Counted from the stretch's first letter, positions 1,126-62,895 are shown. The stretch: DNA of 64,000 nt from Patescibacteria group bacterium (GCA_041660605.1 JBAZWB010000002.1:1431-65430), one strand, 5' to 3'. The notes: generated by a model not told the origin, from the sequence alone. A program made the numbers and translations.

Positions 1126-1157
1126 CTATATGCCATAAGCTATAAGCTATAAGCTAT
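1126..1157. repeat. intergenic motif ctatatgccataagct followed by tandem heptamer (ATAAGCT)x3.3; member of a 4-locus repeat family
   Basis: direct reading: tatgccATAAGCTATAAGCTATAAGCTAT; related copies at 42665-42693, 55791-55870, 62811-62895. Confidence 0.7.
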
Positions 1158-3073
1158 TTTTTAACCTCCTCATACTCCGCATCCACCGGACCCTTATCTT
1201 TCGCTTTGGCTTTATCATCAGTTTTACCTGTTGAACCGCCTGGCTGTGCGCCGGGCTGGCCTTGCGGAGGCTTTTGATCTTTATACATGGCCTGCCCTAT
1301 TTTCTGAATTGTCTGCGATAAATCTTCCGTGGCTTTTTTAATAGCGTCGGCGTCGTCTTTATCCTTTACGTCTTTTACGGCCTTAACCTTATCTTCAACT
1401 TCTTTCTTGATCTTGTCGTCAACCTTATTGCCGGCGTCTTTCAAAGCTTTTTCCGCGGTAAATACCAGAGACTCGGCATTATTCCTGATATCAATCACTT
1501 CTTTTTTCTTTTTATCCTCAGCCTCATGAACCTTGGCATCCTGCTTCATTTTTTCCACTTCGTCTTTTGACAAACCGGATGAAGCGGTAATAGTGATGGA
1601 CTGCTCCTGGCCAGAAGCCTTATCTTTTGCCTTAACATTCAAAATACCGTTGGCATCAATATCAAACGAAACTTCCACCTGCGGTACGCCACGAGGTGAC
1701 GGAGGAATGCCGGACAAGATGAACCGGCCTAAAGTTTTGTTATCGCCAGCCATGGGCCGTTCGCCCTGCAGGACGTGTATTTCCACCGAAGTCTGATTGT
1801 CAGCCGCAGTAGAGAAGACCTGCGATTTGGCAGTTGGGATAGTTGTATTGCGTTCTATTAATGGCGTAGAAACACTGCCCAGGGTTTCGATGCCCAGAGT
1901 CAGCGGCGTAACGTCTAAGAGTAATACATCCTTAACGTCGCCCTGCAGTACGCCGGCTTGTACGGCCGCGCCGAGAGCCACCACTTCATCGGGATTAACG
2001 CCGATGTGCGGTTTTTTGCCGAAAAACTTTTCCACAGTTTCCAAAACTTTTGGCATGCGGGTCATGCCGCCGACCATTATTATTTCCTCAATGTCAGAAG
2101 TTTTCAGTTTGGCATCATCCAGCGCTTTTTGCACCGGACCCATGGTGTTTTCAATCAAGTCGCCGACTAAATCTTCCAGCTTAGCGCGGGAAAGTTTTAT
2201 AGTCAGATGTTTCGGACCGGATGAATCGGTGGTTATAAATGGCAGATTAATTTCCGTTTCAGCGGCCGTGGACAGCTCTATCTTGGCTTTTTCTCCGGCT
2301 TCTTTGAGGCGTTGCAGGGCCATCGGGTCTTTGCCCAGGTCAATGCCCTGGTCTTTCTTGAATTCCTCTATCAGCCAGTCAATGATGCGCTTGTCAAAGT
2401 CATCTCCGCCCAAATGGGTGTCGCCATTGGTGGATTTAACTTCCACGGTGTCAGAAGCCACGTCCAGGATGGAAATATCAAAAGTACCGCCGCCTAAATC
2501 GTAAACGGCGATCTGCTGATTTTTCTTTTTCTCAAAGCCATAGGCCAAGGCCGCGGCCGTTGGCTCATTGATGATACGGCGGACTTTCAGCCCGGCGATT
2601 TCACCGGCATCTTTGGTGGCCTGGCGCTGCGAGTCGTCAAAATACGCGGGCACGGTAATGACCGCTTCCTCGATCTTTTCGCCCAGTTTGGCTTCAGCGT
2701 CCGCTTTCAATTTCTGCAATATCATGGCGGAAACTTCCTGCGGCGTGTTTTCCTTGCCGTTCATCACCACTTTCACGCCCTGTCCGGCACGCACGATTTT
2801 ATACGGCATAGTTTCCACGTCCCGTTTTACTTCTTCGTCATCCCAATGGCGGCCAATCAAACGCTTCACTGAAAAAATGGTGTTTTCGTGGTTAGTCACT
2901 GCCTGGCGTTTGGCTACCTGGCCGACAACGCGTTCGCCTGTCTTGGTAATTGCCACAACCGAAGGGGTCGTCCGGTTGCCTTCCTTGTTTTCCAATACTT
3001 TTGGCTCGCCTCCCTCAATGATCGCCATGGCTGAATTGGTTGTGCCCAGATCAATTCCCAGAATCTTGCTCAT
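1154..3073 (-). CDS. dnaK: molecular chaperone DnaK (Hsp70)
   Basis: 639 aa; [19 protein letters not shown]..., DLGGGTFD, full Hsp70 architecture with Gly/Gln-rich C-terminal tail. Confidence 0.97.
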
Positions 3074-3119
3074 ATTTTTTCCTTTCTAAATGTTTATACT
3101 TATAAATTATAATTATTGA

Positions 3120-3476
3120 TTATTCAATCCTCTCCAGAAAATTATCGCTTTTTTCCAGCTCCTCGTGCAGATCCAGAACCTCTTCGCTCTTCAAAGATTT
3201 TTCGTTCTGGTATTTCGCCACTTCATCCTGCTCCAGGTCAGTCACCGTGCTGGCAACTTTGATGCCGAATGCGCCCAGGGCGATGATCGACAAAGCCGCG
3301 CTCTGGCAGGCGGAGCATTTTATGTACATGAGAGTCGCGCCTTCCTCTTCCTCGATCACTTCCAATCTGCCGAAATCGTACAGGCTGCCGCAAACCGGGC
3401 ATTTAGCTTCCAGCTTTATCCTCTCCGGCTTCGGTCCGCCGCCGCCGAAACTTGAAAAATTATTTGATAGTTTCAT
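3120..3476 (-). CDS. small zinc-ribbon protein (two CxxC pairs: CPVCGS / CSACQS), hypothetical
   Basis: 118-aa ORF sitting between hsp20 and dnaK in the heat-shock operon where dnaJ is often found; acidic C-terminus. Confidence 0.55.
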   Translation of the reverse strand: MKLSNNFSSFGGGGPKPERIKLEAKCPVCGSLYDFGRLEVIEEEEGATLMYIKCSACQSAALSIIALGAFGIKVASTVTDLEQDEVAKYQNEKSLKSEEVLDLHEELEKSDNFLERIE

Positions 3477-3581
3477 ATATTAATTTATTACTGATTATTC
3501 GCTCAGGGTCAGGCAATAATTTTTTACTGCCTCGCCCTGGACTGCCAATGGATGGCTGATACCCAGGTAAAATCAATCTGA

Positions 3582-4124
3582 TTATTTCTTATTCTTCTTA
3601 ATTACCACCTTGATGCTTTTCGGCTTGGCTTCCCCGGCTTTCGGGATGATCACTTTTAGAATTCCATTTTCAAATGTCGCTTTGGCCTTATCCGCCTTGA
3701 CATGGGTGGGCAGGGCGACCGAACGGTAGAACCGGCCATAGCGCACTTCCTGCCGGTAATAATTTTTTTCTTCAACTTCCGATTTGTGCTCAGAATTGCC
3801 CTCTATATGCAGGACGTCGTTTTCCACTGAGATATTCACTTTCTCCGGATCCACTCCGGCTAAAGGCGCTTCGACAATGACATTGTCCTTATCCTGATAA
3901 ACGTCCACCGCCGGGGTGAAATTGGGCATTTTCTGCGGCCAACCCATATTTTCATCGAAAAACTTATCCATATCTGCCGCGTCCCACATTGGACGCCATC
4001 TGATGATTGACATATAATATTCTCCTTTCTTAATTATCAATTTAATGGTTTGCGTTCTCGCGGCCCGTATCGTCACACGGTCTCGTTTATCTCTATCGAA
4101 AACGATACGCGCTGCGAAAACCAA
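3582..4124 (-). CDS. Hsp20/alpha-crystallin family small heat shock protein
   Basis: 180 aa; alpha-crystallin domain (DVYQDKDNVIVEAPLAGV...ENGILKVIIPK). Confidence 0.9.
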   Translation of the reverse strand: MVFAARIVFDRDKRDRVTIRAARTQTIKLIIKKGEYYMSIIRWRPMWDAADMDKFFDENMGWPQKMPNFTPAVDVYQDKDNVIVEAPLAGVDPEKVNISVENDVLHIEGNSEHKSEVEEKNYYRQEVRYGRFYRSVALPTHVKADKAKATFENGILKVIIPKAGEAKPKSIKVVIKKNKK

Positions 4125-4141
4125 ACCGCAAACTTTAAACG

Positions 4142-4615
4142 CTATTCTGCCACCTTCACTTTAGCCGGCTCCAGCACCCTGTCATACAGCTTATAACCCG
4201 GCTTAACCTCACTGATTATTACGCCACTGGCCACATTTTCTTTTTTTTCCTTAGCCACGGATTCGTGCAATTCAGGATTGAATTTTTCGCCTACTGTTTT
4301 TATTTCTTCAATGCCCAGGTCTTTCAATAAATTGCTGAACTGCTTTTTTATCTGCTCAATGCCTTTCAGCCATTCATCATTCTTTTTGTGCTCTTCGGGG
4401 ATATGCTGCCAGGCCAGTTTGAAATTGTCATTGACCGGCAGGAGCTGCAGTATCAGCGTGGCGTTGGCGAACTGCACCAGCTCCATCTGCTTTTTATCCG
4501 TTTCCTTTTTCAGATTTATGTAATCCGCCTTGGCCCGTTTCCAGCCGTTCAGATATTCATCCATCTTTTTTCTGGCTAATTCCAGTTCTTCTTTAATTTT
4601 TTTATCTTCCGGCAT
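4142..4615 (-). CDS. grpE: nucleotide exchange factor GrpE
   Basis: 157 aa; coiled-coil N-term plus GrpE C-terminal beta domain; position between hrcA and dnaK. Confidence 0.88.
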   Translation of the reverse strand: MPEDKKIKEELELARKKMDEYLNGWKRAKADYINLKKETDKKQMELVQFANATLILQLLPVNDNFKLAWQHIPEEHKKNDEWLKGIEQIKKQFSNLLKDLGIEEIKTVGEKFNPELHESVAKEKKENVASGVIISEVKPGYKLYDRVLEPAKVKVAE

Positions 4616-4624
4616 AAATAGTTT

Positions 4625-5332
4625 TTAAAGGTTAGAAAATAATTTTTTAATATATTTCATCATTGCCTGGTTATCTTCATAATTCATTCTCATTGGCCCT
4701 AATACTCCAATCACGCCGGTTTCTTCTCCTTCCAGGCAGTAGCTGGTGACAATAGAGCTGCAATCTTTGCCAAAGGGATTTTCTTCGCCGATCAAAATCT
4801 TAGCGCCGTCATATTCCTTTATCTGCTTAAATATGTTTTTTACCACTTCATCCAGATGGTCAACCACTTCCGAGATATGCTGGACCAGGTCAATCTTCTG
4901 GAATTCCGGCTGCCGGAAAAGATTTGACAAACCGGTATAATAGAAATTATCCGGGCTGAAGCCGATGAAAACCGCGTCTTTAGATAATTCAGCCAGGCCC
5001 TTGGCGACTTTTTTCACTACTGACTCCTTAGTCAAGCCCTTTTCTTTCAGCAATCCCTCCAGAAACCCTTTCTGCTTGTTAGACAGTTCAATATCTTTTA
5101 AAAAATTCTCAATGTAAAATTTCCATCCTTTTTCCGTGGGTATGCGACCAGCCGACGTGTATGGCTGATAAATAAAGCCTTCTTTTTCCAGGACTACCAT
5201 TTCATTCCTGATAGTCGCTGGTGAAAGCTTAAAATTGTGGTTATCCACAATAGTTTTAGAGGCGACGGTATTGCCGGTTTCAACATGCTCCTTGATTATG
5301 GCGCTAAGTAAAGCGCTTTTTCTGTCATTCAT
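4625..5332 (-). CDS. hrcA: heat-inducible transcriptional repressor HrcA (short form)
   Basis: N-terminal winged-helix signature ...TVASKTIVDNHNFKLSPATIRNEMVVLEKEGFIYQPYTSAGRIPT...; CIRCE operator immediately upstream. Confidence 0.85.
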   Translation of the reverse strand: MNDRKSALLSAIIKEHVETGNTVASKTIVDNHNFKLSPATIRNEMVVLEKEGFIYQPYTSAGRIPTEKGWKFYIENFLKDIELSNKQKGFLEGLLKEKGLTKESVVKKVAKGLAELSKDAVFIGFSPDNFYYTGLSNLFRQPEFQKIDLVQHISEVVDHLDEVVKNIFKQIKEYDGAKILIGEENPFGKDCSSIVTSYCLEGEETGVIGVLGPMRMNYEDNQAMMKYIKKLFSNL

Positions 5333-5358
5333 ATATTTGTATAGGTATTATAAATCAA

Positions 5359-5385
5359 TTAGCACTCTCACGTCAAGAGTGCTAA
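5359..5385. promoter_or_regulatory. CIRCE operator (HrcA binding site) TTAGCACTC-N9-GAGTGCTAA
   Basis: perfect inverted repeat ttagcactc tcacgtcaa gagtgctaa 27-53 nt upstream of hrcA start. Confidence 0.92.
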
Positions 5386-5424
5386 TTCGGGTTTTTTATT
5401 ATTAAGTAACCAAAATACTAGTTA

Positions 5425-6603
5425 CTAGACATTAAAATCAACTGTCGTGCCATTTTCGTTTGTAATAACAGGATACCTGCCAGACAAATCCCACGATTTC
5501 GGAGAAACTAAACCATCAATCGTAACCGTTTTTAATACTTCAGATGTTGTCTCAGGGCTATAAAGACGATACTTAGTTTGATTCCCTTCTATCTCCCCGT
5601 ATAGAATTTGCCACTTTCCATCAGGGCTTGCTCCATTGTGCGGATTGCACGTTTCATTGATGTAATCATATCCTCCCCACTCGCCTTTCGGACTTCCCAC
5701 TGTTTCTTCGGTCTTTGTCTTTAGATTAATAAATGATATTGTCGAAAACGATCCACAACCTTCTCCGTACGGTACAGCAACTAAAACGTCATGTCCACTA
5801 TCCCAAATTATATTGTCAAAAAGAGTGGTTGAAACATGATGAGCTGATTTGTATATACTGATCGGGTCTTCGTTTGTAAAAGAATTACTTGCAATATCAT
5901 ACACGATCCCCCGGGACTCAAGTGGCTGTGGACTCACAAGTCCTGGTTCAAACGCTTGAGAATGAATATCAAATTTACCGATTTCAATTATTATTTTTGA
6001 TTGGTTAATCGATGAGTTTACATTATATACCTGTTCAAAAATCTCACTGCCAACTACCCAAGGGGAAACATTAGGAAGCTTAGTTAGGACTAGAGTGCTA
6101 GTATTAAATAAGTAAAACTCTGGATTAACACCAGTCTCATACTCTATATCCTGATCACCAAAACTATCAAAACGAGTAGTTTTAGTTTCTCCTTTTTTCC
6201 AAAAAAGTAATCCATAGCGCGTCGCCTGAACGTGATACGTACTAGCATCAAACCCAACGTCTAACGATTCTGCTAGAGTAGCAGACAAGTAATGATATAG
6301 TTTGCCATTTTTATAATAAAAATTATAATTACTCCAGGGCGCTTCTTCATGATAATAAGATTGAAATTCACCTGTCACAGTATCACCAGCAGGGTTACTT
6401 GCATTTGTCGCAACATTTGTATTTTGTGCAGCTGCGTTAGTATTCAGATTTGTATTTCGAACAGTGGCGTTCTTATTTACTATTGTTAAAGTCGAGTCAT
6501 CATGAACAAACGCCGCATAAATTCCTACCCCGATAGCTAAAACAACCACGATGATAATCAGCAAAGGGGTTATTTTTATTGAATTCTTCTGTGGAGTTTC
6601 CAT
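5425..6603 (-). CDS. membrane-anchored (signal-anchor) extracytoplasmic protein, hypothetical; Asn/Thr-rich linker
   Basis: 392 aa; METPQKNSIKITPLLIIIVVVLAIGVGIYAA... ; N-terminus paralogous (nucleotide level) to ORF 7502-9778. Confidence 0.7.
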   Translation of the reverse strand: METPQKNSIKITPLLIIIVVVLAIGVGIYAAFVHDDSTLTIVNKNATVRNTNLNTNAAAQNTNVATNASNPAGDTVTGEFQSYYHEEAPWSNYNFYYKNGKLYHYLSATLAESLDVGFDASTYHVQATRYGLLFWKKGETKTTRFDSFGDQDIEYETGVNPEFYLFNTSTLVLTKLPNVSPWVVGSEIFEQVYNVNSSINQSKIIIEIGKFDIHSQAFEPGLVSPQPLESRGIVYDIASNSFTNEDPISIYKSAHHVSTTLFDNIIWDSGHDVLVAVPYGEGCGSFSTISFINLKTKTEETVGSPKGEWGGYDYINETCNPHNGASPDGKWQILYGEIEGNQTKYRLYSPETTSEVLKTVTIDGLVSPKSWDLSGRYPVITNENGTTVDFNV

Positions 6604-6612
6604 ATATTTAAT

Positions 6613-7542
6613 TTATTTGTTACCAAAATACATTGTTATATAACTGGTCACTTCCGGAACATCATATTCCCCTGTCACCTCAGCACTATCGCTTGAATCA
6701 AGTAACTGGTAATTGCCCACTTCACGAAGTTGTAAATATTTAAGTACTGCCCGTACGGTCTGAGGGGAATCAACAAAGAGTTGGTTTACTAAGTCAGGAT
6801 TCATCTGTTGCAATAATGGAATGTTGACTCCATTCTGCCTCATCGCTTCTTCATGTGAAACATAATGAGCAAAATCCACACTTGCCAGGACTAATGATCG
6901 GATAGGAAGTATTTCGTTAAGCGCTGTGGCCAATGCGTCAATTGACTCGTTACTGGTGTTGGCCTGGACTGTAATCGGGATTATTCTCGCGCCTGGAAAA
7001 CTTCGGCGAATAAATGGCACTAATCCGTTTATTGAATGTTCAGCAGTAAATATTTTCTCATCAACCTGAATAACGCTTCTGCCTAACAATTCGTTTATAA
7101 TATCCGAAGTTGGTTCAACTTTTCCATATGGCGTATCCCAAGAAGCTTCTGAAGTAGCTAAGTGATAATAACTGCGATTCATATGATCAGGGCCAATTAG
7201 CACAATTGTATCATATTGCTCTCGGGCACCTAGCGTACCGAAAAAATTACCTAATTTATGATTAGCCAATAAATGATGCGGTACGATCCCTGCCGATACT
7301 GAATCTAGTTCTAAAGTGCCGTCAGCTCCCTCGTATCCGCGATCGTAAACATCAGATTTTAAGAAAAATGAACGATGCGCCAATTCATTTGATGCGTTTA
7401 CTGGTCCCTGATTTATGTTGGCTACAATATCTGAATTATTAACCAGCGCCCAGGCTGTGAAACCGCCAGCAATCAAACCAGCAAGCAGCAACACTATAAG
7501 CTTAGTGAAGCGCACCGCCCCACTCAACCACGGTAAACCCAT
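6613..7542 (-). CDS. Memo-like / AmmeMemoRadiSam-system protein B family protein with N-terminal TM anchor
   Basis: 309 aa; Memo family motifs GIVPHH, IVLIGPDH, EHSINGLVPF, DFAHY; start overlaps upstream gene by 41 nt. Confidence 0.65.
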   Translation of the reverse strand: MGLPWLSGAVRFTKLIVLLLAGLIAGGFTAWALVNNSDIVANINQGPVNASNELAHRSFFLKSDVYDRGYEGADGTLELDSVSAGIVPHHLLANHKLGNFFGTLGAREQYDTIVLIGPDHMNRSYYHLATSEASWDTPYGKVEPTSDIINELLGRSVIQVDEKIFTAEHSINGLVPFIRRSFPGARIIPITVQANTSNESIDALATALNEILPIRSLVLASVDFAHYVSHEEAMRQNGVNIPLLQQMNPDLVNQLFVDSPQTVRAVLKYLQLREVGNYQLLDSSDSAEVTGEYDVPEVTSYITMYFGNK

Positions 7543-9778
7543 ATCGTTGTGGTGTTTTAATATTTAATGGTTCAACTGAATAAGGAGATTCAAGCGGCTG
7601 ATAGTCCATGAACACTCGGATAATAGAATCAGGCGCAGGCGCAACTGTTAAAGGGGCAAGTTTCTCAAATGCGGACTGATCAACAAATGTAATAAAGTAG
7701 TACGGACTATCCTGCAACTTCGGCACCCAAAAGTTTAAAAAGTCCGATTTTTCTTGCGCATTAAGGCCTAATAATGTCAGCTTATCCTGTAAAAGTGCAG
7801 CTACTTCGGTATTTTTTACGACAAAACCCTGCTTAGGCATTTCATAATTAAAACCGAATCCTTCCCAGAAAAGATATGGATAAGTTGCCATACCATCATA
7901 TTCCAGCTCCCCATTTGGGTGAGCTGTAACATTCCACCCGCCGTTTGGATAAACCGGATCAGTCAAAGAAAAGCCGCCGTTTGGAGCCACCTGGACATTT
8001 ACCTTAGTTGTTTGCTCAGGATACAAATAAATGACGGGCTTGCCGCACTCCACTGCGGGCAGAAAAGACACTTGTTTGAAGCGCACCCAATGGTCAAACG
8101 GATCCTTCCAATAGAAGAATGGATGCGAAGCGGTAAACGTTTCATAATCAGGCTTTGTATCTTCCTGCGGTAAATAAAATTGATCGTAAGTTTCCCTTAA
8201 TACTTCATTATTTTTATCAATGTATTCATAAACTTTATCCCCGGTACTGGTCTTGCCTGCGGCCTTCAGTTTGTCCAGTCCGCCCATTTCTTCCTCAGTG
8301 AAGATGGCGTGACAAGTACTACTGCCGCATCCGCCAGTCGGTTCATTAAAAGTATATTCAGCTGAATTTGAATTCCCGTCGCTCCAAGTAATTTCCGGGA
8401 TAAAACTGTTTGAAGACGAGAAATGCTCACGCTCTGCAAAATCTTTTATAAATTTAAGTTTGAGGTGGTATAGCCTTACCATGCCGTCCGGCATAACGAT
8501 GAAATAACAATTATACTGGGGATCGAAATATACTGCTCCCATTGAGGCATCAGTAAACACTGCCTGGGCTTGAGGATATTCAGTAGAACGCTTTTTAAGG
8601 TCGAATATTTCGGCGGCTAAATCAACCTTTGAATTAGGAATATCTATCACTGTTGGATAATCTAATCCAGAAATTGTAGAGGCAATATCATATATAAATG
8701 GAATTGTAAAATATGAAAGATTATCAGAATATTTTTCAAGATAGGTTAAGGACAATTTATCAGGATCGTAAACAACTCTATATAGATCCCGCCACCCCAT
8801 TTCCCCAAATTGCAAAATAACAACCAAATAATCACCGGCATACCTACCATTAGCGATTTCGCCTTCTTTATAATATTGGCGAAACCCATAAGAACCATCC
8901 AGACTTTCGATAACTGGATCAATTATATTTAATTCTATAGGTTCCTTTAGCCAGTTGATTTTCAATGCATATCCGTCGTTAGCTGAAAAAGATGTTGTAT
9001 TTTTTACTGCTGGAATAGATAACAAGGGCATCTTTTCAATAAATTTTACACTTTTTAAAATATCATTAATTACTCCTGCTTGTGTGGTTAATGATCTAAC
9101 AGAACCAGAAAAGTTAATTTCATAAACCCGATCCCCGCCATCAATAAAACCCCATAAATCAGTATAATCCTGGTGCGTTTCCGCTATGTTTAAAATAAAA
9201 ATTTTATTTTCTCCCTCAAACGCAACTGGCTCATTAAAAAGAAATTCTGTTGAACGATTGCTTTTGTACTTTTCAACCCACTGCGCAAGCGTATCATGGC
9301 TGTCGTTTTTATGATAAATTACACTTAAATTAAGGTAATATCTGTCTTGAGAAGTACCATATTGTCCATATGCTGAAAATAATCCATCCCCGTCATTCAA
9401 GCCCATGCCCGATTCATTAAAAGTCCAATCCGTTGGGATATCTAATGATAAACCATGGTCTCCGTGCTGGTACTTTATCGTTTGCCATTTTGTTGATTCA
9501 GAAGCGGCAGTTGTATCATGCGGCGCTACAATCACCGTTGGATTTACCTCAGAATTCACGGGGACATTTATATTGGTAATTTCATTAATATTTTGTTCAA
9601 CCGTATTTACATTGATATTAATGTTTGTATTTCTAACTCCGGTATTTTTATTTGCAAGTTTCGACGTCGAATCATCATGGACAAGCGCCGCATAAATCCC
9701 TACCCCGATAGCTAAAACAACCACGATAATAATCAGCAGTGGCGCAAATTTTAAAGAATGCTTCTGTGGTGTTTCCAT
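7502..9778 (-). CDS. large membrane-anchored extracytoplasmic protein (758 aa), hypothetical
   Basis: signal-anchor METPQKHSLKFAPLLIIIVVVLAIGVGIYAA then Asn/Thr-rich linker; long uninterrupted ORF. Confidence 0.75.
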   Translation of the reverse strand: METPQKHSLKFAPLLIIIVVVLAIGVGIYAALVHDDSTSKLANKNTGVRNTNININVNTVEQNINEITNINVPVNSEVNPTVIVAPHDTTAASESTKWQTIKYQHGDHGLSLDIPTDWTFNESGMGLNDGDGLFSAYGQYGTSQDRYYLNLSVIYHKNDSHDTLAQWVEKYKSNRSTEFLFNEPVAFEGENKIFILNIAETHQDYTDLWGFIDGGDRVYEINFSGSVRSLTTQAGVINDILKSVKFIEKMPLLSIPAVKNTTSFSANDGYALKINWLKEPIELNIIDPVIESLDGSYGFRQYYKEGEIANGRYAGDYLVVILQFGEMGWRDLYRVVYDPDKLSLTYLEKYSDNLSYFTIPFIYDIASTISGLDYPTVIDIPNSKVDLAAEIFDLKKRSTEYPQAQAVFTDASMGAVYFDPQYNCYFIVMPDGMVRLYHLKLKFIKDFAEREHFSSSNSFIPEITWSDGNSNSAEYTFNEPTGGCGSSTCHAIFTEEEMGGLDKLKAAGKTSTGDKVYEYIDKNNEVLRETYDQFYLPQEDTKPDYETFTASHPFFYWKDPFDHWVRFKQVSFLPAVECGKPVIYLYPEQTTKVNVQVAPNGGFSLTDPVYPNGGWNVTAHPNGELEYDGMATYPYLFWEGFGFNYEMPKQGFVVKNTEVAALLQDKLTLLGLNAQEKSDFLNFWVPKLQDSPYYFITFVDQSAFEKLAPLTVAPAPDSIIRVFMDYQPLESPYSVEPLNIKTPQRYGFTVVEWGGALH

Positions 9779-9808
9779 AAATTTATTTAATTTAAAAATT
9801 CTTAATTT

Positions 9809-19488: not shown

Positions 19489-21400
19489 CGCTATTGTTCA
19501 AAAGACTCCAGTTATGGAAAAAGCTGTCCTTGGTAAAATATTTTTCACCAGATAAAGGGTCTAGGGTGATGATCTTGGTGGGGTTATCCGCCGAGCCGAT
19601 AAAGCCGATAACCAGGCGCGTGTGCTCGCCGTTAATGGCCACCACGGTTCCGCCTTGCGGAGTTTTCCAGTCAATGCGCGTGCCGCTGCCCGCCGTACCC
19701 CAGACAATCACCGGGTTGCCTTTCTTGATTTCCGAGGTTAAATCCGCCAGGCTGCCGTCGGTAAAAGCCCGGGCAGTGCGGTAAGCGCGGGCAGCCTGGG
19801 CGATCGGCTGCCAGTAAACGCCGTAGCCGGTGGACGGCTGGTGCCCGTCAATATCGCCGACAAAAGCCAGATTAGGATTGCCCCAGACGCCGTCCGATTT
19901 TGGCGTGGTATCAAAGCCAATGGCGTCAATCAAAGTGGCTTCTGAAACGTCCACTCCCCGGAATTTTAGAGCCATCACTAAGGTGGCCACTTCACAGCTT
20001 AAATTATGCTCCTGCCGGTGGAAAGCGACATTCAATTTAGTAACGGAAAGCTCCGTGGTGAAAGAATATTCATATTTTTCTTCCGAAGCGTAACCTGCCC
20101 CAGCCTTAACGCCCGATGCCAGCGAAAATGCGTAGGCGGTATTATAGCTGAGCGGTGCCGTCGGCGTAAAAATCATGGCATTGCCATCCCAGCTGAATAC
20201 TCCCTCAGTCGCGGGTGAAATAGAAAACTTGCCCTCCGCGGATTTTTTATCAACCGCCTGGTCAAAGGTTGTTTTAATGGCGCTGTTAATCCCAATGCCG
20301 GAATATCCATTGTCGGGAAAGGCTTCAGAAACACGTACCGGCCCTAATGTCTTAAACTGATGCACGGAATCCTTCTCCAGATAGCCACCGTCGAAAGTTT
20401 TAGTGCCGGCGGCCAGAGTGACCGTATATTCCGTGTCTTTCTTCAGGGCGGCTGACTGAAAAGTTATTGTTTTATAGTCGTCGGTTTTCCACTGGCCTTC
20501 TACTGCCGGCTCTATCTTAATATTATTGCTAAATGAATCCATGTCCACATTTTTGTCCAAAGTTATGGAGACTGACTGCCCAAGGGAAACATTGTCACCG
20601 GTCGGAGAAAAATCAACAATGCCCGGGGCCTCCTGCACCTGCCATTCAGTTTCCTTGATTAACTCCGGCTCCGCCTGATAGCCAACCTCATCGGTGCCAA
20701 AAGTATAACGAATATTTTTTTTGAAAATTTTAAAAGTGTACTTCTGGCCTTGCAACAGATGCTCCTGGGGTTTAACCGTAAATATTTTTCCGCCATTATC
20801 GCTGGTTACTTCCATCTCAGCCTCCGGGACCAGACTGAACTGATACTCTGTCAACTTTTTACTGTTTTTATCCAGGGTGATCTCCCAGACAACTTCCGGA
20901 CTGATCGGCTGATCGTTGGCAGGTGAAATAGAATCTATTTTCGGCGCATCTTCAACCTGAAAAGTATAAGTGTAACTTTTTGACTGCCAAAATGAAGGCA
21001 GGATGCTTTTTACATTTGAAACAACAACTTCATAAGTTGTCCCGGGTTTCCAGGTTAGCTCCGGTCGGAAGACGATAGATCTGGATAGATGATTAGTAAA
21101 TAAATAGCGGCCATATTCCGTCTCACCATATACTTCGGGCGTTACTTCAATTTTCAGATTTCTGACCACCGGCAGGTTAAAATGAAATTCCAGGGTAGAA
21201 TCGGTGGTTACGAGGCCATTCTCCATCTTCATAACCAAAGATGGTTTTGGTGTCTGTACAAAATATAAATAGCCAATCATAACAAAAAAAAGTATTATAC
21301 CAATAATACTCCAAAATAGTGTTATTTTTCTGGTTTTGATTGATTTTTGTTTTTTATTTTGGCCAATATTTAACATGCTAATGAATAAATTATAACACAA
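19472..21400 (-). CDS. large surface protein: signal-anchor, tandem Ig-like (SbsA-Ig-like) repeats, C-terminal C39-like cysteine peptidase domain
   Basis: 642 aa; repeats with ISPANDQPISPE / FSPTGDNVSLGQ / FPDNGYSGI motifs; C-terminus HNLSCEVATLVMAL ... GEHTRLVIGFIG. Confidence 0.75.
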   Translation of the reverse strand: MCYNLFISMLNIGQNKKQKSIKTRKITLFWSIIGIILFFVMIGYLYFVQTPKPSLVMKMENGLVTTDSTLEFHFNLPVVRNLKIEVTPEVYGETEYGRYLFTNHLSRSIVFRPELTWKPGTTYEVVVSNVKSILPSFWQSKSYTYTFQVEDAPKIDSISPANDQPISPEVVWEITLDKNSKKLTEYQFSLVPEAEMEVTSDNGGKIFTVKPQEHLLQGQKYTFKIFKKNIRYTFGTDEVGYQAEPELIKETEWQVQEAPGIVDFSPTGDNVSLGQSVSITLDKNVDMDSFSNNIKIEPAVEGQWKTDDYKTITFQSAALKKDTEYTVTLAAGTKTFDGGYLEKDSVHQFKTLGPVRVSEAFPDNGYSGIGINSAIKTTFDQAVDKKSAEGKFSISPATEGVFSWDGNAMIFTPTAPLSYNTAYAFSLASGVKAGAGYASEEKYEYSFTTELSVTKLNVAFHRQEHNLSCEVATLVMALKFRGVDVSEATLIDAIGFDTTPKSDGVWGNPNLAFVGDIDGHQPSTGYGVYWQPIAQAARAYRTARAFTDGSLADLTSEIKKGNPVIVWGTAGSGTRIDWKTPQGGTVVAINGEHTRLVIGFIGSADNPTKIITLDPLSGEKYFTKDSFFHNWSLLNNSGVVVE

Positions 21401-22120: not shown

Positions 22121-22176
22121 CTAACTAACTTACTACTTACCAAACACTACATTCTACTTACTACTAACTAACATTC
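22121..22176. repeat. CTAC/GTAG-rich low-complexity spacer abutting tRNA-Glu 3' end
   Basis: ctaactaacttactacttaccaaacactacattctacttactactaactaacattc. Confidence 0.6.
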
Positions 22177-22255
22177 TGGTACCGCGTGTGGGATTCGAAC
22201 CCACGATCTCCTGGATGAGAACCAGGTGTCCTAGACCAAACTAGACGAACGCGGC
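22177..22255 (-). tRNA. tRNA-Glu (anticodon CUC), CCA encoded
   Basis: manual fold: acceptor GCCGCGU/ACGCGGU, D-arm GUCUAGUUUGGUCUAGGACA (cf. E. coli tRNA-Glu), anticodon stem CCUGG/CCAGG loop UUCUCAU, T-arm GUGGG-UUCGAAU-CCCAC. Confidence 0.85.
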
Positions 22256-39420: not shown

Positions 39421-39493
39421 GAACTCTCTGGGTCGTGCCCCGCCATTCGGCGGGGCGACACCTCCGCTCCTTTGGAGCGGAGTGCTCTATGGC
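39421..39493. repeat. structured repeat copy A (two GC-rich hairpins; outer end duplicates tRNA-Lys 3' end)
   Basis: gaactctctgggtcgtgCCCCGCCattcGGCGGGGcgacaCCTCCGCTCCtttGGAGCGGAGtgctcta; inverted relative to copy B at 39871-39962. Confidence 0.6.
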
Positions 39494-39535
39494 TATATAA
39501 GTTGTGGATTGTTAATTGAGAATTTAAAAACTCTT

Positions 39536-39870: not shown

Positions 39871-39962
39871 CGATACCTCCGCTCCAAAGGAGCGGAGTGC
39901 TCTACTTCACCCCGCCCAGTCAGGGCGGGGCAAGCTGCCTGCCTACCGTAACCCAGAGAGCC
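39871..39962. repeat. structured repeat copy B (inverted partner of copy A)
   Basis: cgataCCTCCGCTCCaaaGGAGCGGAGtgctctacttcaCCCCGCCCagtcaGGGCGGGGcaagctgcctgcctaccgtaacccagagagcc. Confidence 0.6.
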
Positions 39963-42620: not shown

Positions 42621-42664
42621 AAAAGGCAGATAGCTAATTGCATATGGCGGATAATAAAAATAAA

Positions 42665-42693
42665 CTATAAGCTATTTGCTATAGGCTATAAAC
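42665..42693. repeat. intergenic copy of ATAAGCTAT/GCTATAGGCTATA motif family
   Basis: ctataagctatttgctataggctataaac between dnaB and ybaB. Confidence 0.55.
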
Positions 42694-42709
42694 AATAAAC
42701 TAAAAACCT

Positions 42710-49931: not shown

Positions 49932-49940
49932 ATACTGTTA

Positions 49941-52025: not shown

Positions 52026-52031
52026 AATTTT

Positions 52032-52574: not shown

Positions 52575-52589
52575 AAAATAAAAAAATAT

Positions 52590-52898: not shown

Positions 52899-52909
52899 AA
52901 TTATGATTT

Positions 52910-53281: not shown

Positions 53282-53297
53282 AAGAGTTTAATATTTT

Positions 53298-53540: not shown

Positions 53541-53549
53541 ACGGATATC

Positions 53550-53771: not shown

Positions 53772-53775
53772 AATA

Positions 53776-54183: not shown

Positions 54184-54186
54184 ACG

Positions 54187-54849: not shown

Positions 54850-54850
54850 A

Positions 54851-55402: not shown

Positions 55403-55413
55403 ATTAAAAAATA

Positions 55414-55767: not shown

Positions 55768-55790
55768 ATTGTTTGATGGTTTATGACTAA

Positions 55791-55870
55791 TGGCTTATAG
55801 CTTATGGCATATAGCTTATAGCATGTGGCTGATATCTGCACTTACTATACGCCATATGCTATAAGCTACC
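55791..55870. repeat. rplB-rpsS intergenic copies (both orientations) of the ATAAGCTAT / GCTATATGCCATAAGC motif family
   Basis: tggcttatagcttatggcatatagcttatagc ... gccatatgctataagctacc; 98-bp spacer inside the S10 operon. Confidence 0.65.
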
Positions 55871-56696: not shown

Positions 56697-56705
56697 ATTA
56701 TATGA

Positions 56706-57197: not shown

Positions 57198-57198
57198 A

Positions 57199-57828
57199 TT
57201 ATCTTAAGTAAGTTTTTTTAATAACATCCAGACTGTCTTTCGTAATAACCAGATACTGGAAGTTTAATATGTCAATAATATTCAAGCTGTCCGCGTTCAG
57301 TAATTTTGCCCCAGAAATATTGCGCACGGATTTTTTCACTTTTTCATCATTCTTGCCGGTTATCAGCAGGGCTGTTTTTTTGACTTTCAATTTGGCTAAA
57401 ATATGGACAATCTGCTTCGTCTTTATTTTCACCAATTCCAGTTTATCTAAAATAATAATTTTCCCATCTTTTGCCTTGTCGGTGAGAACCATGAATAAGG
57501 CTTTCTTTTTTGCTTTTTTATTTAGCTTTAATTCATAATTACGGTCGCTTTGCGGACCGAAAGTAACGCCGCCGCCTTTCCAGATTGGCGAGCGTATGGA
57601 TCCGTGCCGCGCCCGACCGGTGCCTTTTTGCTTCCAGGGCTTGCGTCCTCCGCCTCTGACTTCTGATCTGTCTTTTGAATGGGCGACAGCTACGCGTTTA
57701 TTGGCCATCTGCGTCCTGACTGACTGCATCACCAATCCGGCATTGGCTTTTACTTCAAAAATTTTCGGTTCAAGCTTTACTTCGCCGACTTCCTTACCTT
57801 CTGTATTGTAAACTTTTACTTTTAACAT
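57199..57828 (-). CDS. rplD: 50S ribosomal protein L4
   Basis: 209 aa. Confidence 0.93.
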   Translation of the reverse strand: MLKVKVYNTEGKEVGEVKLEPKIFEVKANAGLVMQSVRTQMANKRVAVAHSKDRSEVRGGGRKPWKQKGTGRARHGSIRSPIWKGGGVTFGPQSDRNYELKLNKKAKKKALFMVLTDKAKDGKIIILDKLELVKIKTKQIVHILAKLKVKKTALLITGKNDEKVKKSVRNISGAKLLNADSLNIIDILNFQYLVITKDSLDVIKKTYLR

Positions 57829-57834
57829 ATTTAA

Positions 57835-58557
57835 CTATTTAGTCTTTTTCTTATCTGCTGTTTTGGCCGGAGTTTTTTCTTTATCAGCGGTTTTCTCGGC
57901 TGGAGCTGGAGCAGCAACGGTTTCATTTTTCTCGGTTGGCGCCAATTTTATTTCCCCGGCAGCCGATATCCTCACCAGGCTATGCCTGGCGCCCGGCAAA
58001 GCGCCTTTGATAAAAAGCAGATCATTAGCCGCGTCTATTTCAATAATTTCTAAATTCTTGACGCTGGCCTGGGCATTTCCCATATGGCCGGCCATCCTCA
58101 TCCCTTTGAAAACTCTCTGCGGGTCAGTGGAACCGATTGAGCCTGGCATGCGTACCTGGTCTTTAGTGCCATGAGTAGTCCGGTGGCCTTTGAACCCGTG
58201 CCTTTTGACCACTCCCTGAAATCCCTTGCCTTTGGAAATTCCGGTAACGTTGACCATCTCCCCTGGCTGGAAAATCTGGACATTTAAAATATCGCCTCTT
58301 TTTAAATTTAAAACGCCCGCTTCAACAAACTCGGCTAAACTGCTGTATTCCGGCAATCCTTTGAGGTGCCCCTTGGCCGGCTTGTTTATTTTATGGCTGC
58401 CGAATCCAAGCTGAACGGCCTGATATCCGTCATTTTCCTTTGTTTTGACCTGGGTCACGTGGCACGGACCGGCTTTTACAACCGTTACCGGCATTACCTT
58501 GCCGTCATCAGCGAACCGCTGGGTCATTTCTATTTTTTCTCCGATTATGAATTTCAT
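57835..58557 (-). CDS. rplC: 50S ribosomal protein L3 (start at MKFIIGEKIEMTQRF preferred; ORF-track start 58647 gives implausible 30-aa leader)
   Basis: L3 consensus N-term begins at internal Met; C-terminal Ala/Pro/Lys-rich tail. Confidence 0.88.
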   Translation of the reverse strand: MKFIIGEKIEMTQRFADDGKVMPVTVVKAGPCHVTQVKTKENDGYQAVQLGFGSHKINKPAKGHLKGLPEYSSLAEFVEAGVLNLKRGDILNVQIFQPGEMVNVTGISKGKGFQGVVKRHGFKGHRTTHGTKDQVRMPGSIGSTDPQRVFKGMRMAGHMGNAQASVKNLEIIEIDAANDLLFIKGALPGARHSLVRISAAGEIKLAPTEKNETVAAPAPAEKTADKEKTPAKTADKKKTK

Positions 58558-58739
58558 AAAATATTTTAATACAAAAAACCGGTCATTTTTGGAGTTCGCC
58601 AGAATTATTAGTGCTCCGGAAAAACCGGCCTTTCTATCATCTGGCAAATCGTTATCTGAGGATTAGAACAGATTGTACAAGAATTGTCATCCTCAGAACC
58701 TATTCACCTGTTATATTTTATAATGAATAAGTTGCGAGA

Positions 58740-59108
58740 CTACATTTTAATTTCCACGTCCACGCCAGCCGGTAAATTCAGATTCGTCATGGCGTCAATG
58801 GTTTTTGGCGTCGGATTAATCACGTCAATCAAACGTTTATGAACGCGCATCTCGTACTGTTCGCGTGCGTCTTTATGAACAAAGGTCGAGCTGTTTACGG
58901 TATAGCGTTTTTTTTCTGTGGGTAAAGGAATGGGACCGCGGGTTTTTGCGCCAGTCCGTATCGCCGTTTCCAGGATAGTCCGCGTTGATTGATCAATTAT
59001 TTTGTGATCATAAGCGCGAATTCTAATCCTAATACGCTGCTGAACTTCTTCGTTCTCGTCTTTGTTCTTTGTTTGGTTATCAGCTTTGTCAGCTTGCTTG
59101 GTCGTCAC
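58740..59108 (-). CDS. rpsJ: 30S ribosomal protein S10 (about 20-aa N-terminal extension)
   Basis: [18 protein letters not shown] core. Confidence 0.92.
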
Positions 59109-59205
59109 TTTGTGTAGTGAAATTAAATGTTCTTTATTATCTAAATTTACGATTTTATAATGTCAGATTAGAAAATTCCAGATTATTCTGGAATTTTCAT
59201 GGTCC

Positions 59206-60390
59206 TTATTTATAGATTTTTGTAACCACGCCGGCGCCTACGGTATGACCGCCCTCGCGGATGGCGAAACGCTGCTGCTCTTCCAGGGCAATCGGGACAA
59301 TCAGCTTGACTTTCAGGGTAACTGTATCGCCAGGCATGACCATTTCAGTCTTTTCTGGTAATTCTACGTCGCCGGTCACATCCGTGGTGCGGATATAAAA
59401 CTGAGGTTTGTAGCCCTTGAAAAACGGTGTGTGCCGTCCGCCTTCTTCTTTGGTCAGAATGTAGATTTCTCCGTCAAATTCAGTGTGCGGCGTAACAGTT
59501 CCCGGTTTGCCGATTACCTGTCCGCGTTCCACGTCTTCTTTCTTGGTGCCTCGCAATAGAATACCTGCGTTATCGCCTGCCTGACCTTCATCCAGCTGCT
59601 TATTGAACATTTCAATGCCGGTAACTACCGTTTTGGTCGTTTCTTTCATGCCGACAATTTCTATCTCATCATTCAGTTTTACCTTGCCTCTCTCGATTCT
59701 CCCGGTCACTACCGTACCGCGGCCTTCAATGGAAAAAATATCCTCAATCGGCATTAAGAAAGGCTTCTCAATGTCGCGCTTTGGCTCTGGAATATATTCA
59801 TCCAATGCTTTTGTCAGTTCCATTATGGCTTCTGCGGCCTTTTCGTCCCCTTCCAGGGCTTTCAGGGCTGAACCTTTGATCACGGGCACTTTATCGCCGT
59901 CATATTGGTATTTCTTCAGTAAATCACGCACTTCCACTTCAACCAGGTCAATCAGTTCCTTGTCATCAACCATGTCAATTTTATTCAAAAATACTATAAT
60001 ATTCGGCACGCCGACCTGGTGAGCCAAAAGAATGTGCTCGCGGGTCTGGGGCATCGGGCCGTCAGCGGCGGAAACAACTAAAATTGCTCCATCCATCTGC
60101 GCGGCACCAGTGATCATATTCTTCACATAGTCAGCATGGCCAGGGCAGTCAATATGGGCATAATGCCTTTTTTCTGTTTCATATTCTACGTGAGCAGTAG
60201 CAATTGTAATACCACGCTCTTTTTCTTCCGGGGCATTATCAATCTGATCAACGGATTTTTCCTGAGCCACAAAACCCTTGTCTTTTAAAACTTTTAATAT
60301 AGCGGCAGTTAATGTGGTCTTGCCATGATCAACGTGACCAATAGTACCAACGTTAACATGCGGTTTTGTTCGTTCAAATTTAGCAGTCAT
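59206..60390 (-). CDS. tuf: elongation factor Tu
   Basis: [14 protein letters not shown], 394 aa. Confidence 0.97.
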
Positions 60391-60697
60391 AGTAGTTAGT
60401 TTTAGTTATTTTTAATACTAAATTACCTTTTAAACTTCAGACTATTAATTTTTAAGCAAAATGTCAATAGCCACAATTTCTGAATAGCAATCTGAATTAT
60501 AGCAATCCCTAACACTTTTCGCAAGTATCTACGGACCCGCCAGAAATCAATATTTTATATCGGATTTTATCTAAATTTACTTTTTTGCCTAATATTAGCT
60601 AAAATATTTAAAATATCCGCTCACTTCTTCTGCCACTTATCCCCAATTTTGTGGATATTTATTAAATAATGCCAAAAACTAATCTATTTTTAAAGAA

Positions 60698-62791
60698 TTA
60701 TTTCTTTTTTCCTGTGCCAGCTTCTTCTTCACCGATAATCTGATTTAACACATTGCGGGGCACGATCTGGTGATTCAGGTATTCCATTGAATACGAAGCC
60801 CGGCCCTGCGACATGGAGCGCAGTTGCGTGGCATAGCCGAACATTTCAGATAACGGCACTTCGGCGTCAATAATTTTCATATTGCCGCGATCCCGCATTT
60901 CCTTGATAGTGGCGCGTTTGGAATTCAAATCGCCTATTACGTCTCCCATAAACTTTTCCGGAGTGACAACTTCAACCTTCATGATCGGCTCAAGTAAAAC
61001 TAAACCGGCTTTCTTGGTAGCTGCCTGCAGGGCGATAGAACCGGATATTTTAAAGGCTGCTTCGGATGAATCAACTTCATGGTATGAGCCGTCCAGAACT
61101 GTGGCCTTCAGGTCAATCAACGGGTAATGGGCCAAAACACCCCTGTCCATAGCTTCTTTAATGCCTTTTTCAATCGGGGTAATGTATTCCTGAGGAATAT
61201 TTCCACCCTTAACTTCGTTAACGAATTCGAAGCCCTTGCCTCTTTCCTGAGGTTCAACGCGGATTACGCAATGGCCGTATTGGCCGCGGCCGCCTGACTG
61301 GCGGATGTATTTTCCCTCAGCTTCGGCAATCTTGGTAATGGTTTCCTTATAAGCCACCTGCGGCTTGCCGACGTTGGCTTCAACTTTGAACTCTCTTTTC
61401 ATGCGGTCAACCAATACTTCCAGATGCAGCTCGCCCATGCCGGAGATAATCGTCTGATTTATTTCCTCGTCGCTTTTCACCCGGAAAGTCGGGTCTTCCT
61501 GAGATAATTTTGACAAAGCCATGCCCATTCTTTCCTGGTCAGCTTTGGTCTTCGGCTCAATAGCTACGGAAATTACCGGCTCTGGGAAATTTATGGATTC
61601 CAGGGTAATAGGATGGTCGGGATCGCATAAAGTATCTCCGGTAGTGGAGTTTTTCAGGCCAACGGCAGCGGCAATTTCACCGGAATACACCTCTTTTACC
61701 TCTTCGCGCTTATTGGCATGCATGCGGACTATCCGGCCGACACGCTCTTTGTTTCCTGTCCTGGTATTCAAAATATAAGACCCGGCGGTAACCACGCCTG
61801 AATAAACTCGAAAAAATGTCAGCGTGCCAACATAGGGATCAGTGGCGACTTTGAAGGCCAGAGCGGCAAAAGGATCGCTGTCAGAAGGTTTCACCGCGAT
61901 CTCCTTTTCAGTTTTGGGCTCCTGGCCGGTAATCGGCGGCACATCCAATGGCGATGGCAGATAATCAACCACCGCATCCAATAAAAATTGTATGCCTTTG
62001 TTTTTCAAGGCAGAGCCGACAAAAATCGGCATCAGCTTATTGGCGATAGTCGCCTGGCGCAAAACGCGCTTCAGCTCTTCTATGGATATCTCTTTGCCGT
62101 CCAGATATTTCTGCAGCAAGACATCGTCCTGTTCGGCAATTTTTTCTACCAGATTATTGCGGTATTCATCCACCTTAGCCTTCATATCTTCAGGAACTTC
62201 CTGGTCTTCCCATTCTTTGCCCATTTCATCTTTATAAACCCGCGCTTTTTTCTCAAAAAGTTCGATTATCCCTATAAAATTCGTTTCTGCTCCGATTGGC
62301 AGCTGAACCGGAATGGCATTGGGAGTCAGGCGTTCTTTAATCGCTGCTACGTCTGCATAAAAATCAGCGCCGGTACGGTCCATTTTATTGATAAAGCCCA
62401 TCAGCGGTACATTAAATTTTTCTGCCTGATGAAAAACGGTTTCGGATTGCGGCTCTACGCCGGCCACTCCGTCAAAAACGATAAAACCGCCGTCCAGTAC
62501 GCGCAGACTGCGCTGTACCTCCACGGTAAAATCTATATGGCCGGGAGTATCAATAATATTGATGCGGCTGGTTTTCCAAAAACAGGTGGTAGCCGCCGAA
62601 GTAATGGTAATGCCGCGCTCTTTTTCCTGCTCCATCCAGTCCATTTCCGCTGCGCCTTCGTGCACTTCTCCGATTTTATGTTTTTTGCCGGTATAATAAA
62701 GAATCCGCTCTGAAACGGTTGTTTTTCCGGCATCAATGTGAGCAATTATTCCTATGTTACGTGTATTTTCTAGGCTATATTCTCTTGGCAT
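60698..62791 (-). CDS. fusA: elongation factor G
   Basis: 697 aa; AHIDAGKTT; five-domain EF-G. Confidence 0.97.
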
Positions 62792-62810
62792 AATTTTGTT
62801 GGTTGTTTAT

Positions 62811-62895
62811 GGCGTATGGCTAATTGCTTATAGTTATATTAGAACCTGCCTATCTACTATAAATTACGGGCTATAAGCTATAGGCTATATGCCAC
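62811..62895. repeat. fusA-rpsG intergenic copies of the motif family (tatggctaattgcttatag ... gctataagctataggctatatgccac)
   Basis: direct reading; 110-bp spacer. Confidence 0.6.

Follow-up and report, generated by a model that had tools for sequence, protein, structure and literature searches.

The DNA stretch under study (64,000 nt, hereafter the window) comes from a metagenome-assembled genome (MAG) of the Patescibacteria, or Candidate Phyla Radiation (CPR), and 90.5% of it is coding. Four of its intergenic spacers contain related short motifs, as pointed out in an initial annotation of the sequence. We inspected the window together with 20 kb beyond its edges, that is, 84 kb of a 960-kb contig, and find that the four loci constitute a genuine dispersed intergenic repeat family. 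Its motif is an imperfect tandem heptanucleotide, GCYATAD, and the elements are better described as heptad-repeat hairpins than by the composite core proposed initially; the 7-nt periodicity, the layout from stop to start codon and the connection to a known class, the heptanucleotide repeats, had been overlooked. All strings quoted in the initial annotation are present at their positions, and the flanking genes it named, dnaB-ybaB, rplB-rpsS and rpsG-fusA, are confirmed; the remaining locus lies between dnaK and a gene for a HEPN-domain protein.

The latter, locus 1 (1125..1159, minus strand), is a single array of five heptads, reading ACTATAT GCCATAA GCTATAA GCTATAA GCTATTT on the plus strand. 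On the transcribed strand it becomes (UAGCUUA)n and opens at the dnaK stop codon TAG (1154-1156), forming a lone stop-side arm without a partner arm. The threefold ATAAGCT repeat reported for this locus is present, provided that the copy within 'ccataagct' is included in the count. In the dnaB-ybaB spacer (locus 2, plus strand), two arms face each other: a stop-side, or distal, arm (42628..42648; AGATAGC TAATTGC ATATGGC, or GCCATAT GCAATTA GCTATCT on the opposite strand) and a start-side, or proximal, arm (42664..42705; ACTATAA GCTATTT GCTATAG GCTATAA ACAATAA ACTAAAA), with the ybaB ATG (42710) following 4 nt past its end. The distal arm of the rplB-rpsS spacer (locus 3, minus strand; 55844..55868) is transcribed as UAGCUUA UAGCAUA UGGCGUA UAG, the first triplet being the rplB stop codon itself (55866-55868). 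Its proximal arm (55774..55836) comprises about nine heptads (GCCACAT GCTATAA GCTATAT GCCATAA GCTATAA GCCATTA GTCATAA ACCATCA), and the A/C-rich tail after these heptads stops 6 nt before the rpsS ATG (55767). At locus 4, the rpsG-fusA spacer (minus strand), the distal arm (62870..62897; plus strand GCTATAA GCTATAG GCTATAT GCCACAC) is situated 4 nt downstream of the rpsG stop codon (62902-62904), and the proximal arm (62807..62834; ACTATAA GCAATTA GCCATAC GCCATAA) is followed by an A/C-rich tail, ACAACCAACAAAATT, and the fusA ATG (62791). Both orientations had been recorded for rplB-rpsS, where they do occur, but they are likewise present at 42628-42648 and 62807-62834, making inverted pairs a property of three of the four loci. 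Heptad variants of the form ATGGCR open mini open reading frames on the sense strand, MAYSALPD at locus 1 (1128-1110) and MAYSKCRYQPHAISYMP at locus 3 (55852-55800), each closed by a stop codon; these are probably incidental.

On the transcribed strand, the three two-armed loci thus share one layout, consisting of a stop-side NUAUAGC arm, a loop, a start-side GCYAUAA arm and an A/C-rich tail. Stop-side arms begin at the upstream stop codon itself or no more than 12 nt away from it, the loop between the facing arms measures 7-35 nt, and the tail (ACCAUAA, ACAAACA) ends 4-15 nt before the AUG, resulting in quasi-palindromes of 80-110 bp that fill the spacers between co-directional genes. A fifth copy with the same two-armed layout is located 4 kb past the right window edge (5640-5750 in L121, the source contig just right of the window), and no further copy was found in the 10 kb beyond the left edge. 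The fifth copy has loop pieces in common with the rplB-rpsS copy, TATAGTAA...CCACATGC. A check for strand bias relative to transcription had been recommended, and all two-armed copies of the source genome and of a related genome, L124, are of one polarity: TATAGTAA comes after the stop-side arm, CCACATGC before the start-side arm, and the A/C-rich tail always stands at the start codon. In a separate observation, a close match to the rplB-rpsS loop (55822-55850, TAGTAAGTGCAGATATCAGCCACATGC) was seen in a Gemmatimonadales MAG (L004 4440-4510), where a hairpin of GCCATAA heptads, flanked by genes for a multihaem cytochrome and a large Mo/FeS oxidoreductase, has the loop AAGTAGTGCAGAGATCTCAATGAGCCACATTGCC. 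We saw this loop at no other locus retrieved; the resemblance could reflect transfer, convergence or chance, for which our rough estimate is ~0.005, and with a match in this one element only, we dismissed the idea of a conserved loop.

The family stands out clearly against chance expectation. With up to two mismatches allowed, the pattern GCYATADGCYATADGCYATA yields 15 matches, all at the four loci, compared to 0.01 expected from dinucleotide shuffles, bearing out the claim that the related motifs form a real family. Under a second null, a Markov model whose training was limited to AT-rich intergenic DNA, 16 matching sequence windows were seen in the four spacers versus 0.03 expected. The four loci also give rise to the top inverted-repeat pairs of the whole window. 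Tandem Repeats Finder (TRF) detects period 7 at 1126-1157, 42660-42707, 55793-55822 and 62870-62889, with 2.9-6.9 copies, and self-similarity at lag 7 marks nine regions of the window, compared to none for lags 4, 5, 8, 9, 10 and 11. Aligned in register, the unit G-C-Y-A-T-A-D is nearly invariant at C2, A4 and T5 and free at positions 3 and 7; C2 and A4 are present in 43 of 44 heptads, a count inflated by the pre-filtering of units at 5/7 or more matches. By TRF, register and lag-7 analysis alike, the arrays contain at least three head-to-tail 7-nt units, as expected of a heptanucleotide simple sequence repeat (SSR), and the unit recurs at intergenic loci (five in 84 kb) while being rare in coding sequence. 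The scan suggested as a possible refutation, namely that the motif might be no more intergenic than chance, found all five copies in the 84 kb to be intergenic.

An RNA structure check had also been proposed for the ribosomal protein spacers. The rplB-rpsS copy has the strongest predicted mRNA hairpin, with -35.2 kcal/mol (z = -5.7) and an unpaired start-codon region, compared to -24.0 kcal/mol (z = -1.7) for rpsG-fusA. For the dnaB-ybaB copy, the predicted hairpin has -16.3 kcal/mol (z = -2.3), whereas the predicted folds of locus 1 (-9.9 kcal/mol, z = +0.64) and of the fifth copy (-16.9 kcal/mol, z = -0.5) are no better than those of shuffled sequences. The same applies to a copy in the rplX-rplE spacer of L124, meaning that half of the copies fold no better than shuffles. 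The predicted stems contain one mismatch per heptad, at variable positions, and no pairing is predicted for the last 20-30 nt, AUG included. To compare the arms, we used 21 two-armed GCYATAD elements from the window, one relative and other phyla. Complementarity at the variable positions was 0.515 within elements and 0.497 between them (permutation P = 0.29), and therefore the pairing potential follows from the heptad consensus alone. This comparison revealed no sign of compensatory maintenance or of a recent perfect inverted duplication. Given arms that do not co-vary and copies that in half of the cases do not exceed shuffles, we rejected an RNA stem under selection as an account of the family.

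We also searched the elements for conventional expression signals. No sigma-70 promoter (-35/-10 with 16-18 nt spacing) was found on the sense strand of any element, and locus 2 has one weak sigma-70-type match in antisense. No terminator-like match, i.e. a G+C-rich stem with a U-run, was listed on the heptad elements, whose stems are AU-rich and give way to A/C-rich sequence. At gathering score, Rfam recovered only two tRNAs in the whole window, and between 55300 and 63500 it returned nothing even at E <= 5; a ribosomal protein leader or another curated RNA family was hence rejected for want of a covariance-model match. The attenuation element suggested initially, and termination likewise, find no support in these results: U-tract terminator, promoter and Rfam match are all missing. 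A DNA-uptake sequence was discarded too, the density of about 1 per 17 kb being too low. Within the region, the sigma-70-like promoter that scores best, TTGCGA-17-TATAAT plus an upstream TG (60524..60496, minus strand), sits in the 307-nt fusA-tuf spacer (60391-60697), suggesting a separate promoter for tuf and the S10 operon. Shine-Dalgarno (SD)-like matches, even of 4 nt within 20 nt of the start codon, precede only ~13 of 71 window genes, and the upstream regions are A/T-rich (AAATAAATAT-like). Judged by these sequences, translation initiation in this CPR genome looks largely SD-independent. The missing SD is consequently no special trait of ybaB, rpsS and fusA, as most genes of the genome lack one.

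For a comparison with relatives, we turned to metagenome contigs, although this search returned mostly distant loci with 50-60% L2 identity. The nearest relatives, one of which is annotated as Candidatus Kerfeldbacteria, show ~70% L2 identity and ~80% over five translation proteins. One of them, L124 (L2 71% identical), has a two-arm GCYATAD element in its rplB-rpsS spacer (82 nt) and another in rplX-rplE, the two having near-identical loops with a common TAGTAAATTAATTACCAT. Its rpsG-fusA spacer instead contains a hairpin of a different heptad, GTAATAN (z = -4.9). In the same spacer (1090-1205), an apparent duplication of the EF-G N-terminus precedes a G+C-rich hairpin, with the called fusA start coming last; this may be a small insertion with duplication. 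The lengths of 98 nt (rplB-rpsS) and 110 nt (rpsG-fusA) given for the source spacers are correct, and these spacers are, as claimed, unusually long: in L205, L206, L207 and L125, the rplB-rpsS spacers are heptad-free and span 9, 9, 27 and ~52 nt. L124 is closer to the element-free L205 and L206 (83%) than to the source (80%), so that gains or losses of the element are needed to explain its distribution. The number of units differs between lineages, and contigs of two further samples match the window at 100% identity over 8-13 kb.

Beyond these relatives, GCYATAD arrays were absent from all 79 unrelated rplB-containing metagenome loci examined (L126-L204, 724 kb). Nevertheless, lag 7 dominates among the lags that are not multiples of 3 in these loci, with 29 regions versus 1-7 for other lags. 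Stop-to-start hairpins of CTAGGTT and GTGGACA heptads occur in L204, including its rplB-rpsS spacer, and two heptad copies of this locus have a loop in common. Further stop-to-start heptad hairpins are formed by GTTTTGA in L165, TGACGNN in L151 and GTTCCAG in L145 (tuf-rpsJ), and the tuf-rpsJ spacer of L143 contains a direct array, (CGATTGA)5. Other uncultivated bacteria thus carry analogous heptad hairpins in their ribosomal operons, each with its own heptad. In reference genomes, the GCYATAD pattern has at least 120 matches in many phyla. Among the matches listed, about 20 are of the two-arm form, arrays of other CPR genomes immediately precede start codons, rplP and tRNA genes, and there is little strand bias relative to genes across phyla (27 vs 21). 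In viral contigs, permuted heptads of equal composition gave 33, 39 and 67 matches, compared to 37 for GCYATAD. With permuted controls as frequent and strand bias this small, we rejected a universal cross-phylum GCYATAD motif.

A second heptad family, GTAGTWR, occupies two further spacers of the window with a placement like that of GCYATAD. Both arrays, on the minus strand, were detected by TRF and at lag 7. The first (19415..19485), about ten units of GTAGTWG on the transcribed strand (ACTACCA on the plus strand), starts at the stop codon of a Big_5/Peptidase_C39_2 gene (19472..21400), in the spacer before the next gene. The other (22128..22170), about six GTAGTAA-type units on the transcribed strand, is found directly 3' of tRNA-Glu (22177-22255) and upstream of a holin-like gene. 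Taking both families together, heptad arrays are present in 7 of the 30 window spacers of at least 50 nt. A weak A/C-rich array directly 3' of tRNA-Lys (39502-39529; CAATTAA CAATCCA CAACTTA on the transcribed strand) is similar to the tails into which GCYATAD start-side arms decay. The same tRNA-Lys is flanked by two copies, 88% identical, of a G+C-rich palindrome, CGACACCTCCGCTCCTTTGGAGCGGAGTGCTCTA (39440-39500 and 39871-39904), one of which adjoins a second hairpin, CCCCGCCATTCGGCGGGG; ARAGORN and Rfam identified only the tRNA here. Other duplications concern coding sequence. A 92-nt duplicate in L121 (2826-2916 / 4700-4789, 87% identical) repeats the 5' end of a DUF2090 gene (ATGCTCGGATATAACAA...) upstream of the neighbouring Fic-domain gene, probably as the relic of a gene fragment. 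Among the large genes that have no Pfam match, two pairs of neighbours have 5' ends that are 80-81% identical (17039-17128 / 19260-19349, 90 nt; 6441-6618 / 9616-9793, 178 nt); the resemblance suggests paralogous N-termini, which could be signal or anchor regions in surface proteins.

How are such elements to be understood? We tentatively favour, at somewhat less than even confidence, a heptanucleotide-repeat family dispersed through the genome as a selfish or neutral passenger rather than a dedicated regulator, tolerated in operons and arising and homogenised by slippage and copying. This reading fits best because of the patchy presence of the elements, their shared loops, the decayed-looking hairpins and the arms without co-variation. 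We infer that the arrays would arise, and stay alike, through replication slippage in 7-nt steps together with copying or gene conversion between loci. Their tolerance might have three grounds. Each heptad contains UAG or UAA on either strand and the 7-nt period places stops in three frames; therefore, a copy abutting a gene would end translation at once. The unpaired A/C-rich tail into which the start-side arm decays may keep the downstream start codon open in an SD-poor genome, and the two arms should be able to pair with one another. As a transcribed part of the operon mRNA, the element would have at most the effect of an imperfect intercistronic stem-loop similar to those of repetitive extragenic palindromes (REPs), punctuating mRNA decay and translation. 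The spread of fold z-scores from -5.7 to +0.6 among the window copies indicates that pairing is not maintained.

Several observations do not sit easily with a passenger. The fixation of C2 and A4 next to the free positions 3 and 7 is unlike neutral decay and hints that the motif is read, the 5/7 pre-filter inflating this contrast. Random insertion would produce both polarities, whereas the two-armed copies of the source and L124 have one, and the family and its layout are kept in two lineages whose conserved translation proteins are only ~80% identical. Neither a mobilising enzyme nor a target-site duplication was found in the 84 kb inspected, a part of the 960-kb genome to which our evidence is confined. 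Moreover, the contigs of the three samples are 100% identical, so that no slippage polymorphism is visible.

The main rival to the passenger reading, unlikely as we consider it, is that the arrays form a cis-regulatory site for a putative oligomeric nucleic-acid-binding protein that reads the 7-nt register, either on mRNA (an S1-, cold-shock-, KH- or HutP-like factor contacting UAG or CNAU every 7 nt) or on DNA, and controls translation or decay of the flanking cistrons. Such a reader would account for conservation at the level of the motif rather than of pairing, and for the constant polarity relative to transcription; the stop-side arms, (UAG-N4)n on the mRNA, have the spacing of the HutP site of Bacillus, and single arrays in other CPR genomes lie 5-20 nt upstream of start codons and tRNA genes. 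Similar proposals have been made for TAACTGA repeats (PMC4679880) and Nostoc heptamers (bioRxiv 10.1101/2022.06.06.494920). However, the Pfam-annotated genes of the 84 kb include no HutP-like or dedicated RNA-binding gene, the genes next to the elements (dnaK, dnaB-ybaB, ribosomal proteins, a DUF2090 gene) have no common function, and the cross-phylum arrays show little strand bias among the matches listed. In addition, the heptad differs from genome to genome, some having two, and each lineage would need its own co-evolved reader. Rather unlikely, in our view, is a selected intercistronic RNA hairpin, its stem stretching from the stop codon almost to the start codon, which would serve as a processing site, for RNase III or another enzyme, setting the differential stability of operon segments, or alternatively bring stop and start together and so keep translational coupling in an SD-poor genome. 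That the elements span exactly this interval, that their predicted structures spare the AUG, that the predicted rplB-rpsS and L124 rpsG-fusA hairpins are very stable, and that hairpins of unrelated heptads occupy the same spacers elsewhere (L124 rpsG-fusA, L204 rplB-rpsS) would all agree with selection on the fold. Set against this are the half of the copies that equal shuffles, the lack of compensatory variation between arms, the single arm of locus 1 and of several CPR copies, and the closest relatives, which manage with 9-nt spacers.

A mobile origin had already been considered in the initial annotation, as a selfish repeat akin to miniature inverted-repeat transposable elements (MITEs). 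Its selfish, or neutral, dispersed character fits best, but a clear terminal inverted repeat with target-site duplication was not seen in the inspected sequence, nor was a transposase. We regard it as quite improbable that the elements are classical non-autonomous transposons, MITEs or REP doublets (REPINs), moved by a dedicated transposase encoded elsewhere in the genome. Their inverted-pair architecture of 80-110 bp, the loops common to copies and the patchy presence among relatives are what one would expect of such elements, and REP dimers likewise reside between unidirectional open reading frames (ORFs), on the downstream side of coding regions (PMC3733652). Inverted extragenic pairs between co-directional genes occur at three of the four loci, but the copies end in GTAGC, ATAGC, CTAGT or TTAGC and thus lack the constant GTAG or CGTC tag of REPs (PMC3733652); the arms are tandem repeats of variable unit number instead of fixed terminal repeats, and there is no consistent duplication at their ends. 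No REP-associated tyrosine transposase (RAYT, a Y1 transposase) or other transposase is among the Pfam-annotated genes of the 84 kb, and the density reaches only ~5 copies per 84 kb. The chance that the elements act as an internal promoter, or as an intrinsic terminator or attenuator, of the ribosomal superoperon is very small. TATAAG and TATAGC hexamers within the heptads do resemble a -10 box, and arrays end 7-14 nt before the 5' end of tRNAs in two other CPR genomes. Yet no element has a sigma-70-type hexamer pair on its sense strand or a G+C-rich stem with a U-run, the sequence after the stem being A/C-rich rather than U-rich, and a good promoter is located elsewhere, upstream of tuf.

To our knowledge, two decades on, nobody knows the function of the heptanucleotide repeats that are over-represented in prokaryotes. 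The GCYATAD family adds a case in a new phylum, in an ultra-small CPR genome, in which one expects pressure on every base, together with a clear two-arm architecture from stop to start codon inside the most conserved operon of the cell, and with the hint that many uncultivated lineages share this architecture while using heptads of their own. If they are passengers, the elements mark the spacers of the ribosomal superoperon that tolerate insertions of 100 nt; should they instead be read with a 7-nt register, they would indicate an SD-independent mode of translational control. A broader conjecture, to which we likewise attach a low probability, is that stop-to-start heptad-array hairpins represent a widespread unrecognised class of intercistronic mRNA elements in SD-poor uncultivated bacteria, on which a conserved reader gauging the RNA at 7-nt intervals (such as ribosomal protein S1 or a cold-shock-type OB fold) would load and pass ribosomes on from stop to start, the heptad being lineage-specific and the period and layout being kept. 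Were this true, the hairpins in rplB-rpsS, rpsG-fusA and tuf-rpsJ of unrelated lineages would reflect function, not tolerance. For annotation, the elements explain anomalously long spacers between ribosomal protein genes, and the repeat may supply the stop codon of some genes.

A literature search retrieved no published description of GCYATAD repeat sequences. The family is new; its kind, bacterial heptanucleotide repeats, is known. The HutP site of the Bacillus hut mRNA consists of UAG triplets 4 nt apart, with a 7-nt period, in two clusters. GCYATAD stop-side arms are similar in reading UAGCUUA UAGCUUA UAG, but many units have UGG or UUG, and there is no terminator to antagonise. A HutP-type antiterminator site was therefore rejected: the UAG-N4 spacing is present, but a terminator is lacking, and so is a HutP-like gene among the annotated genes of the 84 kb. 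REPs are palindromes of 20-40 bp with a GTAG or CGTC tag, often linked to RAYTs (Di Nocera 2013, PMC3733652; Bertels and Rainey 2011, PMC3116915). Like REPs, bacterial interspersed mosaic elements (BIMEs) and REPINs, GCYATAD elements are extragenic, transcribed, commonly in pairs of opposite orientation and located between unidirectional ORFs; REPs also form species-specific families and are thought to act as mRNA-stabilising hairpins (PMC3733652, PMC3116915). They differ in that GCYATAD arms are tandem heptads of variable number and that their copy density is much lower.

Together with REP elements, the closest described analogues are the GGGAATC heptamers of Xanthomonas and the TAACTGA heptamers of Beggiatoaceae. 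Heptanucleotide repeats are the most over-represented long SSRs in prokaryotes, and slippage has been proposed as their source (Mrazek 2007, as cited in PMC4679880 and PMC4692102). There are ~186 heterogeneous (GGGANTN)n arrays in Xanthomonas, mostly of four units and 89-93% intergenic (Rehm et al. 2015, PMC4692102); the majority lie between co-directional ORFs near the end of the upstream one, and 70-75 are convergent pairs (PMC4692102). Like these and the GGGGAYT repeats of Nostoc (PMC4692102), the arrays described here are built of heterogeneous heptamers with some fixed positions, (GGGANTN)n there and (GCYATAD)n here, usually number about four units, are intergenic between co-directional ORFs and near where the upstream one ends, form inverted pairs able to fold into stem-loops and differ in occupancy between related species. 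Unlike the Xanthomonas and Nostoc repeats, which are G-rich and have been studied as G-quadruplex formers, GCYATAD is AT-rich with a GC clamp and forms no G-quadruplex; its host has a 0.96-Mb CPR genome, and its copies are found within the ribosomal superoperon, spanning exactly from stop to start.

The cyanobacterial short tandemly repeated repetitive (STRR) heptanucleotide repeats include those of Calothrix, as cited in PMC4692102. In Nostoc, heptamers influence recO and recF expression; once those upstream of recO had been deleted, both the activation of the recO promoter by NtcA and its repression by LexA were changed in E. coli reporters (bioRxiv 10.1101/2022.06.06.494920). As with GCYATAD, STRR and Nostoc repeats are genome-wide families of tandem heptamers near promoters or start codons, but they have other units (TTTTGAA, GACYAAT), occur only as direct arrays and belong to a different phylum. 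The TAACTGA repeats of marine Beggiatoaceae, some Cyanobacteria and Bacteroidetes consist of two to six tandem heptamers in intergenic positions (MacGregor 2015, PMC4679880), within a few nucleotides of mostly SD-less start codons, including those of fusA and of ribosomal protein operons; binding by S1, Csp or Csr has been proposed for them, not shown (PMC4679880). With these repeats, GCYATAD shares the location inside ribosomal protein operons, the position before SD-less genes and the stop codons within the unit. It is set apart by a different unit, by the prevalence of inverted pairs, as opposed to 169 direct sets and 1 indirect set of TAACTGA (PMC4679880), and by a stop-side arm that abuts the upstream gene.

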